From: Promethearchaeota archaeon
GTDB lineage: Archaea > Asgardarchaeota > Heimdallarchaeia > Hodarchaeales > Hodarchaeaceae
Reading direction: 5' to 3'
DNA length: 64,000 nucleotides
NCBI GenBank assembly: GCA_048938105.1
Contig: JBHLMN010000005.1
Location: 119,318-183,317, forward strand
Part shown: positions 6,157-11,127 of the stretch, piece after piece
Layout: the number at the start of each line of letters is the position of its first letter
How positions within the stretch are numbered: position 1 is the stretch's first letter
The notes under the pieces: generated by a model
What the model was told of the DNA's origin: nothing
Databases searched by the model: none
Seen by the model: the letters and a program-made list of their open reading frames with translations, nothing else
Program-made: the position numbers and the translations under genes

Positions 6157-6564
6157 TCAGGCTTCTTTCCAGTCCCATATTCCTGTTTTTCGCCAACGGC
6201 AATAGGCCCAGATCCATGATTGGATCATAATGGCAGCATCATAAGCTGTATATGAAAAATGCCAGTCTTTTTGGGGGCGAAGATAACAAATTTCCGTATG
6301 TCCATATTTATCTATTTTATAAACATGATGTACTTTTGTAGATACTTTTGGTCGAGTAACCCATGCTCGAGGTGGGGCTGTTGGATAGTTATGGGGAAAT
6401 TCGATCAACACATGAAATGTCCCACAGGAATATTCTCCAGTTGTAACGTATTTTACACGAACACAGATATTTCCATTTTCCAATCGATAAAAATCCTTTG
6501 TACTTAATGAAGGAAATACTCCTTGTAATTCATGAAGTTCTTGTTCAACTGTTCTAGTATTCAC
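6157..6564 (-). CDS. Ubiquitin-conjugating enzyme E2-like protein (paralog B)
   Basis: FPHNYPTAPP, HHVY (HPN-equivalent), GHTEICYL with putative catalytic Cys, KDW. GTG start preceded by GGTGA SD. Confidence 0.85.
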   Translation of the reverse strand: MNTRTVEQELHELQGVFPSLSTKDFYRLENGNICVRVKYVTTGEYSCGTFHVLIEFPHNYPTAPPRAWVTRPKVSTKVHHVYKIDKYGHTEICYLRPQKDWHFSYTAYDAAIMIQSWIWAYCRWRKTGIWDWKEA

Positions 6565-6577
6565 TAAAGATCACCCA

Positions 6578-7012
6578 TTAAAAAAAATGATCCCAAAATC
6601 CTGCCTCTGGAAAATCCCAATTTTGAGTTTTAGTCCAACGACAGTATGTTGTAAGCCAATTTTCAATCATTTTTGCGGCTTCAAACGAAGTGTAACTAGG
6701 ATGCCAGTCCTTTTTAGGACGTAAATAACAGATGAGAGCATGTCCTTCTTCATCCCATCGATACACATGAGGGGTTTGATGTGGAATTTTAGGTTTCTGA
6801 ACCCAAGCCATGGGAGCACTGATTGGATAATTATAGGGATATTCAATCAAGACATCAAAATATCCACAGGCAAATTTTCCTGTAGTGATAAAGCTGATCT
6901 GAACACAATAGTTACCATTCTTAAGCTTACGGAAATCTTTTCTCCGAATATTTGGGAAAACTCTTCGAAGAGGGTCTATTTCTCGTTCTGGAATAGTTTG
7001 CCTTAGTAACAT
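6578..7012 (-). CDS. Ubiquitin-conjugating enzyme E2-like protein (paralog A)
   Basis: YPYNYPISAP, TPHVY, GHALICYL with putative catalytic Cys, KDWHPSYT. Start placed at ATG 7012 just after the E1 stop; 7030 and 7066 are alternatives. Confidence 0.85.
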   Translation of the reverse strand: MLLRQTIPEREIDPLRRVFPNIRRKDFRKLKNGNYCVQISFITTGKFACGYFDVLIEYPYNYPISAPMAWVQKPKIPHQTPHVYRWDEEGHALICYLRPKKDWHPSYTSFEAAKMIENWLTTYCRWTKTQNWDFPEAGFWDHFF

Positions 7013-7016
7013 CTTC

Positions 7017-8258
7017 TTATTCTTCTTCATGACCTTGGTGTCGTAGATGGATTGTTTGGATCCCATGAAATGGACACTTTGGATCTTTTTCTAAGTCTTC
7101 ATAGTAATATAGTTCAAGTCCCTCATATTTTTCTGTTGATTTGTCCACATTCATTATCGTTCGATTGAACCACATATAAAAATTATGTGGGAAGTGATAC
7201 AAACCATGTTCTATCCCTTTGAGGAGGATATCCAGACAGAATTTAGAAAGTAATATCGTTACATTATCTACATCTAATCCTAATCCAGGTTGAGCCAGCT
7301 GTTCTTGTAAAGTTCGATCATAACTAATTTTGCGTTCGAGTTCAATTGTAGTTGGGATTGCTTTTGTTTGGATACTTCCATAATCATTTGGTTTGGAATA
7401 AAGACAATGATAACAATAATCATCTTCCTGAGGATCAACTTTAAACATCAATCCTCCATCAACTCCATCAAACGTCCCTGCATAGATTATTGGGATAGTT
7501 AAATGATTAGAATGAACAAAATCATTAATAGCATAATTCACATCGTGTTCTCCCGAGACTGCAGCAATTAAGTCAACATTCTTGAGAAGACTGAAAAAAA
7601 AGTCAAAATCAGCCTTAGTATATAAATGGAATTTTCGTTCTATTGTTTGTATATCAACATCAGGGATTCTCGCTTCAATATAATCTTTTACTGCTTTTGT
7701 TTTAAATCGTCCAAGATTAGTGAGATCACAAATGTGCCTGATAATATTATGAGTTTCAAGATAGTCGTCATCGATGAAGATGAACTTTTTAACACCCGAT
7801 TTTGCGAGATATAACGCTAGTAGTGCTCCCCCAGACCCCATACCTATAATAGCAACCTTTTTTTGGTTCAGTATTTTTAATGGAGTCTCTTTTTGATCGA
7901 TTCGTACAAATAACCTATCTAAATTCACATACTCAATATCTACCTCGACAATGAATTCCCTATCGTCTTCATTATAGTTAACTTCGGCTTTTAGATTTGA
8001 AAGTTCATTTTCTACAATGATATGAAGGTAAGGATATTCTAGAGCTTTAGCTGTAATGATTGGTTCTTTTGTGGGGGTACTTCCAATTGTCAGAAGCCCT
8101 ATTGACTGACTATTCTTTGATGGATACACTCCTGTAAGATGACATACTGTAAGATCATCATAAATCCTCCCATAAAGCAGATAGGTTATTGTTTGACCTT
8201 TTAAATCGTTAAATTGGTTTTCAAATGAAGGATAAATAATTATTCTCATCTTATTCAC
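7017..8258 (-). CDS. E1-like ThiF/MoeB family adenylyltransferase with N-terminal extension
   Basis: IIGMGSGG, DDDYLETHNIIRH, GRFKTKAV, Zn ligands CYHC...CPFH, QPGLGLDV. ATGA-type overlap with the JAMM gene stop. Confidence 0.9.
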   Translation of the reverse strand: MNKMRIIIYPSFENQFNDLKGQTITYLLYGRIYDDLTVCHLTGVYPSKNSQSIGLLTIGSTPTKEPIITAKALEYPYLHIIVENELSNLKAEVNYNEDDREFIVEVDIEYVNLDRLFVRIDQKETPLKILNQKKVAIIGMGSGGALLALYLAKSGVKKFIFIDDDYLETHNIIRHICDLTNLGRFKTKAVKDYIEARIPDVDIQTIERKFHLYTKADFDFFFSLLKNVDLIAAVSGEHDVNYAINDFVHSNHLTIPIIYAGTFDGVDGGLMFKVDPQEDDYCYHCLYSKPNDYGSIQTKAIPTTIELERKISYDRTLQEQLAQPGLGLDVDNVTILLSKFCLDILLKGIEHGLYHFPHNFYMWFNRTIMNVDKSTEKYEGLELYYYEDLEKDPKCPFHGIQTIHLRHQGHEEE

Positions 8259-9229
8259 TCCAATTTACACATAACTTTCCATAAAGGTTCTTTCATTAAT
8301 TGAGGGATTTTTTCTTCTAGGGTAACCTTAAGCAATTGAAGAAATGGTTGGATAAGTTCTTGTTCATATAAGACATTTGCAGGATGTTTTTCGACTGTAA
8401 CCTTTCTTGATAAGTCCTGTGAAGAGATGTCGATATATATCTGTCCCTCTGGGAAGTCTGAGGGAAATGAAATTAGAATTATAAGATCTAATGTTTTATC
8501 TTCCCCCTCTAGTTCTAAAATAAACTGAAAAGGAAATGATAAAATTATTTCGTCTGGTGTTGAGCTTGAAAACTGGAGGATATCTTTAATTGTGAACCTT
8601 GAGCCATAAACCTTTACTAATTCGTTTTTCACAATAGATATCTGTTTTTTTGTGATACCTACTTCTTCAATAGAATTATAATCATCAGTGAAATAGGATA
8701 TGTTTTTATCAGGTATTCTAAAAGTTTGAAAAACACTTTCTACTTCCTCTCCGATATTTTCATTTTTCTTATACACTTCTATTATTAATTCATGATCATC
8801 TTCGGTAATAGAATCAATGATTGTGGATATAACTATATTCTTATGAGGATTAAGGGTAAAGAACTCCTCTACTTGCATATGATCGCCGTGACTTGGGCCC
8901 CCATATCCGAGGTGTTTATGCCAATTCCCTAAATAAAGTAAATTTTCTTTATCTAAGATTGATCTTGCATATTTAGGATTTATTTCGAAATAAGTATTAT
9001 TTCTGATACATTCCTCCTCAGGTGGGATATATGTTTTGATAATCCGTATTTCTAAACCAGATTCTTTTTGTTGGATCTTACCAAACATCAATCCACCAGT
9101 TTCTTTCCCAGGCCATTTCGCTGTTTCTTCCATCATTTCATTGATCATTTTGTTATTAAAATGGATGAAAATAGTTTCAGCTTGATTCTGAAACAATGAA
9201 AACATCCTCTTAGTTTTAAAAAAAATCAT
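8255..9229 (-). CDS. JAB/JAMM (MPN+) metallopeptidase with C-terminal degenerate E2/RWD-like domain
   Basis: ETGGLMFG and WHKHLGYGGPSHGD give a complete E-HxH-S-D JAMM motif. C-terminal ISFPSDFPEG resembles the E2/RWD (Y/F)PxxP motif. Start is 9229 or 9205. Confidence 0.88.
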   Translation of the reverse strand: MIFFKTKRMFSLFQNQAETIFIHFNNKMINEMMEETAKWPGKETGGLMFGKIQQKESGLEIRIIKTYIPPEEECIRNNTYFEINPKYARSILDKENLLYLGNWHKHLGYGGPSHGDHMQVEEFFTLNPHKNIVISTIIDSITEDDHELIIEVYKKNENIGEEVESVFQTFRIPDKNISYFTDDYNSIEEVGITKKQISIVKNELVKVYGSRFTIKDILQFSSSTPDEIILSFPFQFILELEGEDKTLDLIILISFPSDFPEGQIYIDISSQDLSRKVTVEKHPANVLYEQELIQPFLQLLKVTLEEKIPQLMKEPLWKVMCKLE

Positions 9230-9251
9230 AAAAGAAAAATTAAATGAGATT

Positions 9252-9353
9252 TTAGTAATGTTTGGCTATTGGGACTGTATCCTTGTTTTCTTCAGCATCT
9301 TCCGTTGCTTTCTCTTTTGACTCCGTGTCTACTCTTTTTACTGGTCGAGGCAT
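9252..9353 (-). CDS. Unannotated 33-aa peptide MPRPVKRVDTESKEKATEDAEENKDTVPIAKHY, first gene of the JAMM-E1-E2-E2 operon
   Basis: ATG at 9353, TAA at 9254-9252, AGGAG SD 10 nt upstream (9368-9364), co-oriented and directly upstream of the JAMM gene. Below the ORF-track size cutoff. Confidence 0.75.
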   Translation of the reverse strand: MPRPVKRVDTESKEKATEDAEENKDTVPIAKHY

Positions 9354-9397
9354 TTGCTTTAAACTCCTAAATACTCCAATTAAACGGAATAGACCAC

Positions 9398-9412
9398 TAT
9401 TTATTAATCTTT
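9398..9412 (-). promoter_or_regulatory. Putative BRE/TATA promoter of the peptide-JAMM-E1-E2-E2 operon
   Basis: Minus strand reads AAAGA-TTAATAAATA about 45-55 nt upstream of the peptide ATG. The AT-rich context lowers specificity. Confidence 0.35.
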
Positions 9413-9810
9413 AGTTATGAGAAAGAGACATTTTTGATGAAAGGATCTGTATAGATGATAATTTTATATATTAGAGTAAAAATCTAATGAATTTATTTAA
9501 TTTACACAGCCTTTGTTCTACATAATTGAACCATTGGCATGAAATATGTTAAGAACACTGCTAATTTCCAAGATAATAAGATCTAGTAATGATAAGATAC
9601 TTTATCATGGATATTCCTAACAATTAATGGTCTATATAATAAAATAATGAGTTTGAAGGTTGTGATAGAAATGATATACATAATGATTCATCATATTTCA
9701 GTTCTTGTTTAGGATTCTAGATATGAGAATCAAAAATCGGTTCTAAGTGTTCTCTTCTTGTACTTAAATATCCAAAAAGATTTATTATCTTATAATCAAT
9801 CTTTAGATAA

Positions 9811-11127
9811 TTACTCTGAAAAACACTTCATTAAACGCTCATATAAATTGGGAATGGTCATGAAGAAATAGTAATCCCAGAAAGATGAATATATCGAGTA
9901 AAAATCTTTCCAATTATAAGTCTGGAGTAATTCAAAGGCTCTTCGGTTCTCAGGAAGACTAAACTCTTTGATCCCTTCAATTAAATCTGAGTAATGTGAA
10001 GCAGAAACACGAAACTTTTGGAAACATTTCTTGTTAATAACAGGTAGTTCAGGATGAAGAAATATCAATAGTTTAATTAGTGAATTAAGTAACCACACAC
10101 GTGTTTCGCTTTTCCACTCGGGATCATAAGTATCTTGGAAGGAAATCACTCGGGCAATAGGTCCATAGAGTTTTTGAGTAGCTTTTTTTCCATGAATAAC
10201 ACGTTGCCCCATTTCTATAACAAGTTTTGCATCTTTGAGGCTCTTTAGATACCGATATATTGTTGAGCGTTTCCGCGGTGCGAAAGCCACTTGGTTGTAT
10301 TTTTCTACGATTTCCTCTATAGTCATTGGTCCATCCCGCAAGACATGAAAGAGGGGAATATAGGCTGGTTTTTCCGTATAATGACGTCTGATATCATCTG
10401 TAGGTAATACAAAAAAGAAATTGGGTAGTTGTCTGAAAATATCTTGGACATCTCTGGATTTTTTAATCGTAAGATTCATAGTTGTATCATTAGTAGAAGT
10501 TCTGGATGTTGTTGCTACTTCTATATGTTCGTTAAAGCAGTTCAATAGTTCATCTTGGGCCGTAGGATGCGTTAGGAGAACAGATATCCAACCCAAAAAT
10601 TCTACGATATCATTGATGCTATAAGGAGCCCAAACAGATAATATCTCGAGAATTTCAGCGTTTTTTGAATTGATAAGCCTCTTTTTATCCGCATTTACAA
10701 TATGTTGGAAATTTAGCTGCCACTGGAAAAGAGCATTTTCATCAATGATCTTATTTGGATAAACTATCTTTAAAATATTGAGTATTTCTTTGAAAATCCA
10801 ACAACCATGGTTTTCTTCCCAATCTATTTCTGGTTCATCAATAATTATGTACTTCGCTGTGAGTGAATAAAGGGTTCTTGACATGGTTTTTCCTTTGGTT
10901 ATTCGTTGACCCACTTCTTGAATAATATTATGCTGCTTTAATAGATTTAGATATAGATAAACTGTGGATTTACTATTTGCTTGTCTCATCTCCTTCGTTA
11001 ATTCTGCGTACTTCTTGGCAATTTCTTCAAGGGTCAAAGGATCTTCTTCATGTAGAATTTTAACAAGAGTTAAATAACGAGGATTTCTTAAAAGAGCAAT
11101 CTGTTCTGGATTTAAAGTGGCCATCAC
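9811..11127 (-). CDS. Internally duplicated winged-helix (ArsR-like) transcription regulator
   Basis: Two homologous halves: PLTLEEIAKKY..KSTVYLYLNLLKQHNIIQEVGQR..TLYSLTAK and PMTIEEIVEKY..RSTIYRYLKSLKDAKLVIEMGQR..KLYGPIAR. Confidence 0.8.
   Translation of the reverse strand: MMATLNPEQIALLRNPRYLTLVKILHEEDPLTLEEIAKKYAELTKEMRQANSKSTVYLYLNLLKQHNIIQEVGQRITKGKTMSRTLYSLTAKYIIIDEPEIDWEENHGCWIFKEILNILKIVYPNKIIDENALFQWQLNFQHIVNADKKRLINSKNAEILEILSVWAPYSINDIVEFLGWISVLLTHPTAQDELLNCFNEHIEVATTSRTSTNDTTMNLTIKKSRDVQDIFRQLPNFFFVLPTDDIRRHYTEKPAYIPLFHVLRDGPMTIEEIVEKYNQVAFAPRKRSTIYRYLKSLKDAKLVIEMGQRVIHGKKATQKLYGPIARVISFQDTYDPEWKSETRVWLLNSLIKLLIFLHPELPVINKKCFQKFRVSASHYSDLIEGIKEFSLPENRRAFELLQTYNWKDFYSIYSSFWDYYFFMTIPNLYERLMKCFSE

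Follow-up and report, generated by a model that had tools for sequence, protein, structure and literature searches.

A conserved 33-residue peptide ending in His-Tyr as the candidate modifier of a JAB–E1–E2 gene cassette in Hodarchaeales

Genes and enzymes of the cassette

The window (the whole stretch of 64,000 nucleotides that was analysed) carries on its minus strand a micropeptide gene followed downstream by four co-directional genes, which encode a JAB/JAMM metalloprotease, an E1-like adenylating enzyme, and two E2-like proteins. The micropeptide gene (9252..9353, minus strand), the first of the cassette, was recognized as an open reading frame (ORF) and by its conservation. It encodes 33 amino acids running from Met-Pro-Arg-Pro to Lys-His-Tyr-stop, with five lysines (K6, K13, K15, K24, and K31), no glycine, and the C-terminal end TVPIAKHY. 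The translation is exactly the one quoted in the preliminary description of this DNA, which had drawn attention to the AGGAG, the five lysines, and the lack of glycine and gave no strand; the strand is minus. The gene is present in a single copy in the genome.

Two putative expression signals precede the gene on the same strand. An SD-like AGGAG (9368..9364, minus strand) lies 10 nt before the ATG, and a TATA-like box, TTTAATT (9384..9378, minus strand), occupies positions -31 to -25 relative to it; both (T/A)GGAG and TTTAATT are kept in most of the Hodarchaeales orthologues. In distant cassettes, the peptide is preceded only by a TATA-like box approximately 25–30 nt upstream with no SD, suggesting leaderless mRNAs for the peptide gene in these lineages.

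The JAB/JAMM metalloprotease (8255..9229, minus strand) is 324 amino acids long and is matched by Pfam Prok-JAB and by the CBASS-type JAB models of PADLOC. It is overlapped by 4 nt by the E1-like gene (7017..8258, minus strand; 413 amino acids), which matches Pfam ThiF and the PADLOC E1-E2 models. E2-like protein A (6578..7066, minus strand; 162 amino acids) has a weak match to Pfam UQ_con and matches the PADLOC CBASS E2 models, and E2-like protein B (6157..6564, minus strand; 135 amino acids) is its paralogue with 53% identity. The CBASS-type JAB, E1-E2, and E2 models of PADLOC fit much better than those of Pfam, with E-values down to 4e-29, and relatives of the E2s are recorded as PF26395, E2-CBASS.

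In the JAB, Glu43, His104, His106, Ser113, and Asp116 are invariant in an alignment that includes a Nitrososphaeraceae member. The protein carries an extra C-terminal domain of approximately 150 amino acids, which has no match in Pfam; by profile it resembles the E2s of the same cassette only weakly (hhalign probability 39%). His100 and Cys113 of the E2 are invariant in 13 E2s from seven lineages. The E1 core keeps the GxGxxG loop, the Arg/Lys, and the CxxC...CPxH zinc site. Its crossover loop, predicted to be disordered in the AF2 model, has no invariant cysteine between the CxxC and QPGLG motifs, and the only invariant residues there are Tyr287 and Tyr313, the latter across 20 sequences. With their catalytic residues and motifs in place, the JAB, E1, and E2 look active but unusual.

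The E1 begins with a domain of its own, spanning approximately residues 1–125 (7884-8258, minus strand) and described from AF2 models, Foldseek, and VIA-align. It is predicted to fold confidently (pLDDT 80) as an MPN domain from which the metal ligands are absent. The best fold matches are Rpn8/Mov34 (Z 9.0 to Rpn8), KIAA0157, Cap3, and BubCD (Z 7.2), and the top matches of Foldseek and VIA-align are all MPN proteins. The top Foldseek match of the E1 model is Cap2 (7TO3). A search of PDB sequences with the E1 profile gave PaaA, ThiF, Cap2, and MccB as the best matches and prompted a reading of the N-domain as an MccB/PaaA-type peptide clamp that would hold the conserved N-terminus of the peptide, which was rejected since the fold searches returned MPN proteins. 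An E1 with a dead MPN domain beside a separate active JAB recalls the Rpn8–Rpn11 and CSN6–CSN5 pairs. A predicted complex of two E1 copies with ATP, Mg, and the peptide scored 0.20 (mark 0.32) and counts neither way.

Conservation, linkage, and distribution of the peptide gene

The local DNA (30%–35% GC) holds 99 ORFs of at least 25 amino acids within 11 kb, so the length of a 33-codon ORF is not by itself above chance, and it is conservation that establishes the gene. The orthologues compared are 11 Hodarchaeales loci of the same genus that include upstream DNA, and all identities refer to the copy in the window. The micropeptide lies at the same place in all 11 with 85%–100% amino acid identity, while its neighbors reach 42%–79% (JAB), 58%–81% (E1), and 60%–86% (the E2 pair); the micropeptide is thus better conserved than the neighboring enzymes. 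The differences between orthologues are almost all synonymous (dN/dS approximately 0.04), and the variable columns at codon positions 1, 2, and 3 number 7, 4, and 30 of 32, respectively. Nucleotide identity is 83% in the ORF against 64%–69% in the flanks. All three stop codons (TAA, TGA, and TAG) occur at the one stop position, and the start is TTG in one orthologue and GTG in a more distant relative, at the same codon as the ATG. These patterns show that the micropeptide is a real gene under very strong purifying selection. A conserved non-coding element or structured RNA is ruled out by the codon-position pattern; Rfam returned nothing relevant over positions 9000-9900.

The peptide is also tied to its enzymes. 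Every JAB relative with upstream DNA has the peptide ORF directly 5' of it, and downstream of each peptide copy found comes an ORF that contains the JAB metal motif. The order peptide–JAB–E1 is constant across cassettes, with JAB and E1 fused in one case, while the E2 genes vary in place (downstream, upstream, or divergent) and in number, from one to four copies per cassette. Seven loci with 20 kb of context have only the peptide, JAB, E1, E2, and E2 in common; neither the 438-amino acid winged-helix gene upstream nor the DinB gene downstream is conserved with the cassette, and no beta-grasp, CD-NTase, effector, exporter, or immunity gene is found among the shared genes of these loci. Some neighbors of the cassette are HEPN-MNT or MoxR-type genes. 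Within the cassette, Pfam finds no ubiquitin-like protein (Ubl), no DUF6527 protease, and no cyclase, the last also absent by PADLOC. Other E1/E2 systems in related Heimdall genomes, such as the Cap2-like fusions (L014–L016), have no such peptide ORF. The peptide is thereby shown to be inseparable from JAB–E1–E2. The proposal that this ORF is a genuine micro-gene is borne out by its conservation and dN/dS, which mark it as a translated-looking and obligate member of the JAMM–E1–E2 cassette, and the comparison of JAMM-upstream regions in relatives, which had been suggested for Asgard genomes, recovered homologues far beyond them.

In a whole-genome search, 12 of the 20 other genomes of the genus carried the cassette, and a JAB query over 399 genomes of the phylum found it in no other genus. 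A JAB profile searched against 1.84 billion representatives recovered approximately 20 full-length relatives, and an ORF of 32–54 amino acids lies immediately 5' of the JAB in all those whose contigs include upstream DNA. The peptide-bearing cassettes represent at least 11 JAB clusters at 50% identity and come from Asgard archaea, Nitrososphaeraceae, and unassigned metagenome contigs, with a contig GC of 25%–52%. In Nitrososphaeria, five of 401 genomes have the cassette, one of them with two, adding five more peptide variants. Independently, a blind scan of GTDB species genomes and JGI metagenomes with a degenerate DNA pattern returned the Hodarchaeales copies and a relative of 52–54 amino acids from Nitrososphaeraceae. 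Further pattern matches in Flavobacteriales, Sediminibacterium, Pirellulales, Halpernia, Shewanellaceae, and several metagenome contigs were rejected as chance; none ends in His-Tyr, and most of these ORFs stop within 4–49 codons, one (L075) staying open for at least 200.

Gene callers have often already recorded the peptide homologues as an unnamed 33-amino acid product, and in the B3_Heim assembly the peptide is recorded as a 63-amino acid ORF with 30 extra N-terminal residues. The peptides have no match in Pfam, NCBIfam, or PADLOC; the best peptide match in the ESM Atlas, 0.76, is at chance level, and tblastn of the peptide against phage records gave no match. The E1 matches in plasmid records of Acaryochloris and Mesorhizobium were set aside as lone ThiF genes, and the Acaryochloris gene had neither a JAB nor a His-Tyr-ended ORF next to it. 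In a Planctomycetota sample of 401 genomes, there are three distant E2/E1/JAB cassettes, one of which, read in detail, has a 60-amino acid first gene ending in Gly and not in His-Tyr.

The two termini are the most conserved parts of the peptide. At the N-terminus, Met-Pro is invariant and is followed by Arg in all lineages but one, which has Asn (family alignment together with L093 and L094). The center has Asp followed by Ala, Val, or Ile within an acidic or mixed-charge stretch. The C-terminus reads Pro-x-x-x-His-Tyr/Phe, in which His is invariant and the last residue is Tyr, or Phe in Nitrososphaeraceae. Tyr is directly followed by a stop, encoded by different codons, in most Hodarchaeales copies and in four lineages besides; elsewhere, short, unrelated tails of 1–6 residues come after the aromatic residue (S, RN, M, SA, RQ, and YYFFNR). 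The five Nitrososphaeraceae variants carry the tails YLLNDL, FNDS, YTLQ, YSDT, and YNGT after an invariant ...TIPNIKHF. No Lys, Ser, Thr, or Cys column is conserved across the peptide families, and there is no conserved Gly near the C-terminus.

A candidate modifier and its rivals

By analogy, an invariant boundary at which the peptide either ends or continues into a hypervariable stub is what ubiquitin-like precursors show, with tails that the peptidase of the pathway takes off. No second candidate modifier is encoded in the cassette, which makes the peptide the candidate. The reading we prefer, and to which we give about an even chance, is that the five genes form a self-contained conjugation cassette in which the micropeptide, as a disordered mini-modifier or tag, replaces ubiquitin. 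The preliminary description had held the peptide too short for a beta-grasp fold, and this agrees with its 33 residues (32–54 in relatives) where that fold needs approximately 70 or more; the C-terminal conservation that it proposed to look for is strong, as in a modifier.

In the proposed mechanism, the unfolded peptide would be made either with its reactive end exposed, where the stop follows Tyr, or with a tail of 1–6 residues that the JAB would remove. The E1 would then adenylate the carboxylate of the terminal aromatic residue. It is probably dimeric, and we infer that its dead MPN domain may dock the active JAB as Rpn8 docks Rpn11. Because the E1 has no cysteine in its crossover loop, the acyl group would pass to the invariant cysteine of the E2 either directly or via Tyr313 of the E1 loop. 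From the E2, the peptide would be passed to an amine of a target protein. The range of targets would be wider with two or more E2 paralogues, and the E2s may select among them as proposed for BilB; the JAB would also reverse the modification.

Of the two routes of activation offered in the preliminary description, the data favor the putative direct activation of the terminal Tyr. The other, in which JAMM trims KHY to expose ...PIA, does not fit the family: His-Tyr is the invariant end, the positions of PIA vary, and the extra residues follow Tyr. Likewise, the suggestion that internal lysines allow chains loses its footing, with no such column kept across the families. To our knowledge, no E1/E2 cascade uses a C-terminal aromatic residue, and an aromatic P1 is unusual for JAMM proteases, the characterized JAMM Ubl substrates that we know of ending in Gly.

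A stronger form of the preferred reading is that an unfolded, His-Tyr-ended peptide of 32–54 residues is activated by the E1 and passed via Cys-E2s to proteins, which would make it the first stand-alone E1/E2 modifier that has neither a beta-grasp fold nor a Gly end; we place this a little short of an even chance. Full-text literature searches turned up no description of a peptide with a His-Tyr end beside E1/E2/JAB genes. Besides the unusual aromatic end, several observations count against a tag. The variable tails also fit a pocket-binding motif that needs no free carboxylate, a C-terminal handle leaves the conserved Met-Pro(-Arg) and the central Asp-Ala unexplained, and the E1 is without the usual catalytic cysteine.

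The main rival, which we regard as unlikely, takes the peptide as a non-covalent subunit or regulator of the JAB, E1, or E2 whose His-Tyr end fills the tail-binding groove of the JAB or the E1. It might inhibit, chaperone, or act as a sensor "plug" that a trigger causes to be displaced or cleaved, and the true conjugated species would be Ub/ThiS-type proteins acting in trans or the cassette enzymes themselves. Conservation along the whole peptide, including Met-Pro(-Arg) and the central Asp-Ala, suits a binding partner, and tails of 1–6 residues are tolerated at the C-terminus in several lineages. Possible partners are also present in the genome, where the ubiquitin gene adjoins another E1 on a different contig (C11) and several ThiS-family genes likewise lie on contigs other than that of the cassette. 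However, the stop falls exactly after Tyr in several lineages through different stop codons, which argues that the free end matters, and where tails occur, they are hypervariable and abut an invariant His-aromatic boundary. Furthermore, the cassette moves between genomes without any Ubl, and Nitrososphaeraceae and the unassigned lineages would each need a partner in trans.

It is improbable that the peptide is an acceptor and not a donor, being modified on the amine of its N-terminal Pro after Met removal or on a side chain. A variant of this reading, in which the E1/E2 polymerize the peptide or cyclize it head to tail, would explain both conserved ends. The termini are indeed the most conserved parts, with Met-Pro invariant in all families, and methionine aminopeptidase removes Met when Pro is at position 2 and leaves a free N-terminal Pro, so the mature peptide should begin with Pro. 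Against this, the families share no internal nucleophile column (Lys, Ser, Thr, or Cys), and secondary amines accept poorly in the E2 chemistry that is known.

We give similarly little credence to a RiPP-like or metabolite precursor, in which the ThiF-type enzyme would modify the C-terminus of the peptide in the manner of MccB or PaaA (as a peptidyl-nucleotide or by cyclization), the JAB would carry out proteolytic maturation, and what emerges would be a small molecule or a modified peptide and not a protein tag. The short, precursor-like gene directly upstream of modifying enzymes is consistent with it, as is the place of PaaA and MccB, both of which use short ribosomal peptides, near the top of the PDB sequence search with the E1 profile. 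The RiPP-like substrate of the preliminary description is nevertheless weakened by the N-domain of the E1, which folds as an MPN domain devoid of metal ligands in place of a peptide clamp or RRE, and by the presence in every cassette of one to four E2s whose His and Cys are invariant. In addition, the cassette is not accompanied by any conserved exporter or immunity gene, and the peptide is conserved along its whole length where a leader and a variable core would be expected.

For the conjugation cassette with a peptide tag, the patchy distribution across phyla together with the shifting neighborhoods suggests, as circumstantial evidence, an accessory defense or stress function. The prevailing view is that ubiquitin-type cascades depend on a beta-grasp modifier ending in glycine, although in CBASS the tail of an enzyme can substitute for it. 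If the preferred reading is true, a micropeptide with an aromatic end as the sole candidate substrate would widen both the chemistry and the definition of ubiquitin-like tagging, and the modifier of "Ubl-less" E1/E2/JAB operons may lie hidden in ORFs that annotation often miscalls or leaves without a name. The system occurs in Hodarchaeales, the archaeal order closest to eukaryotes, and in Nitrososphaeraceae, which are soil ammonia oxidizers, two groups whose accessory conjugation and defense biology is almost unexplored. With five genes and a synthesizable 33-residue peptide, it is small enough for direct reconstitution to be feasible.

Comparison with known systems

The cassette fits none of the five operon types 6a–6e of Iyer et al. 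2006 (PMC1779556). Type II CBASS, operon type 6b in that scheme, has a module of Cap2, an E2-E1 fusion, and the Cap3 JAB, which act on the C-terminal tail of the CD-NTase; the titles of PDB entries 7TO3/7TSX describe Cap2 (E1-E2) as conjugating a non-beta-grasp protein through its C-terminal tail. The E1, E2, and JAB of the cassette are homologous to Cap2/Cap3, and in both systems the activated substrate, presumed in the present case, is not a beta-grasp protein. In contrast to CBASS, the five shared genes include no CD-NTase and no effector, the E1 and E2 are encoded separately, as they are in every relative examined, and the E1 has a dead MPN domain and no crossover-loop cysteine. Its presumed substrate is a free peptide of 32–54 amino acids ending in His-Tyr, while that of CBASS is an enzyme ending in Gly or Ala.

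The Bub (6E/DUF6527) system consists of BubCD, a JAB-E1 fusion without the Cys that acts via a loop tyrosine oxyester, the BubB E2, and the BubA Ubl, and BubCD removes the tail of the modifier precursor (BubAB) (PMC11601596). The cassette shares with it an MPN-fold domain fused N-terminally to a homodimer-type E1, a crossover loop that has an invariant Tyr and no Cys (Tyr313 here, Y370 in BubCD), and a peptidase expected to pre-process the modifier. Unlike in Bub, the MPN domain is without metal ligands and the active JAB is a separate gene, the E2s keep their Cys (Cys113) where the Bub E2 uses Ser, and the cassette has neither a beta-grasp Ubl such as BubA nor a DUF6527 protease such as BubE.

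In Bil, the JAB (BilC) removes a C-terminal extension of BilA to expose its reactive end, and the E2 is thought to choose the targets (PMC10557695). Similar to the antiphage BilABCD, the cassette joins a stand-alone modifier with an E2, a JAB, and an E1 and has no E3. BilA differs from the peptide in being a beta-grasp protein that ends in Gly, and BilD, unlike the E1, carries a mobile Cys domain in addition to adenylation domains arranged in tandem.

Pup has the C-terminal residues Gly-Gly-Gln/Glu. Its ligase, the glutamine-synthetase-like PafA, couples it via a side-chain carboxylate, and no E1 or E2 takes part. The peptide resembles Pup and UBact in being small, charged, presumably disordered, and without a beta-grasp fold, but its end is His-Tyr, its enzymes are of the ThiF, UBC, and JAB types, and the cassette has no PafA/Dop-type gene. 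No sequence similarity of the peptide to Pup was detected in Pfam or NCBIfam. Of the earlier suggestion of a Pup-like modifier, the part concerning a small, charged, and unfolded molecule stands, while the end and the enzymes of Pup are different.

The pairs MccB/MccA and PaaA/PaaP likewise combine a ThiF-type enzyme with an adjacent short peptide gene; in the cassette, the peptide and E1 genes share one operon and are one gene apart. MccB and PaaA have an N-terminal peptide clamp and no E2 or JAB partners, whereas the cassette has an MPN domain and Cys-E2s. As with the beta-grasp modifiers (Ub, SAMP, ThiS/MoaD, BilA, and BubA), the peptide is encoded with an E1, an E2, and a deconjugating peptidase; unlike them, it has no beta-grasp fold, and its end is His-Tyr/Phe and not Gly(-Gly). 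The cassette lacks defining features of each of CBASS, Bub, and Bil, and its nearest systems are CBASS Cap2/Cap3 for the sequences of the enzymes, Bub for the architecture of the E1, and Bil for the logic of the cassette.

Neighbourhood of the cassette and related genes

Upstream of the cassette of the 33-aa His-Tyr-ended peptide, JAB, E1 and two E2s, the same strand encodes a protein of 438 aa that contains two PadR/ArsR-like winged-helix modules (window 9811-11127, minus strand). It is excluded as a member of the system because it adjoins the cassette in no other genome. Several genomes have the cassette next to either a HEPN and nucleotidyltransferase pair or a bpMoxR-type AAA operon (L076 6755-7622; L024 9378-11805; L041; L042), gene types that are frequent in islands of conflict or defence genes.

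On contig C11 (120119-120731) of the window's own genome (G000), a canonical gene of the ubiquitin family, scoring 57.7 bits against PF00240, is located directly upstream of another ThiF/E1 match. This pair is separate from the peptide-JAB-E1-E2 cassette and presumably represents the eukaryote-like Asgard ubiquitin operon. A distant E2-E2-E1-JAB cassette was found in a planctomycete (L099 3539-6442, minus strand), in which the E1 lacks the N-terminal MPN domain and the first ORF, of 60 aa, starts with Met-Ala-Pro-Lys-Pro but has Gly, not His-Tyr, at its C-terminus. Possibly, another kind of small partner is encoded here by the first gene, in the slot of the His-Tyr-ended peptide.

Nitrososphaeraceae cassettes

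The peptide ORF and the start of the JAB gene share 11 nt in the Nitrososphaeraceae cassette L021. In this locus (6981-7529), and likewise in L022 and L023, the E1 frame stays open for approximately 180 codons after the JAB gene ends, with no ATG, GTG, or TTG, and for this reason, gene callers shortened the E1 to 229 aa; translation must in fact begin either at a non-standard codon or through coupling. One Nitrososphaeraceae genome, G399, has two copies of the cassette (L087 and L088); most of the difference between the two peptides lies in the tail after the conserved ...IKHF, which is YLLNDL in one copy and FNDS in the other.

E2 genes and the JAB C-terminal domain

Cassettes differ greatly in how many E2 genes they have and where these lie: one in Nitrososphaeraceae, two in Hodarchaeales and in L094 (1378-2267), and four paralogues surrounding a single peptide-JAB-E1 unit in L084 (212-7211). 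Such variation points to diversification of the E2s as what drives the choice of targets. The C-terminal domain of JAB (residues ~175-324; window 8255-8710, minus strand) lacks Cys and matched nothing in a Pfam search, but it has a weak profile-profile match to the N-terminal half of the cassette E2s around their FPxxFP motif (hhalign probability 39%, 73 columns). It is possibly an RWD/UEV-like fold.

E1 architecture and comparison with BubCD

The N-terminal domain of the E1 (window 7017-8258, minus strand; residues 1-125) has an MPN fold but lacks the metal ligands, and the crossover loop (residues 286-329) is Cys-less, with Tyr313 invariant and the adjacent Asp314 and Arg315 nearly so. No description of a hybrid of such a Tyr-loop E1 with Cys-E2s was found in the papers examined. 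The MPN-fold N-domain and the Cys-less loop with an invariant Tyr resemble those of BubCD, the JAB-E1 fusion and Tyr-oxyester E1 of the Bub pathway, whereas the pairing of this E1 type with Cys-E2s sets the cassette apart from the Bub pathway.
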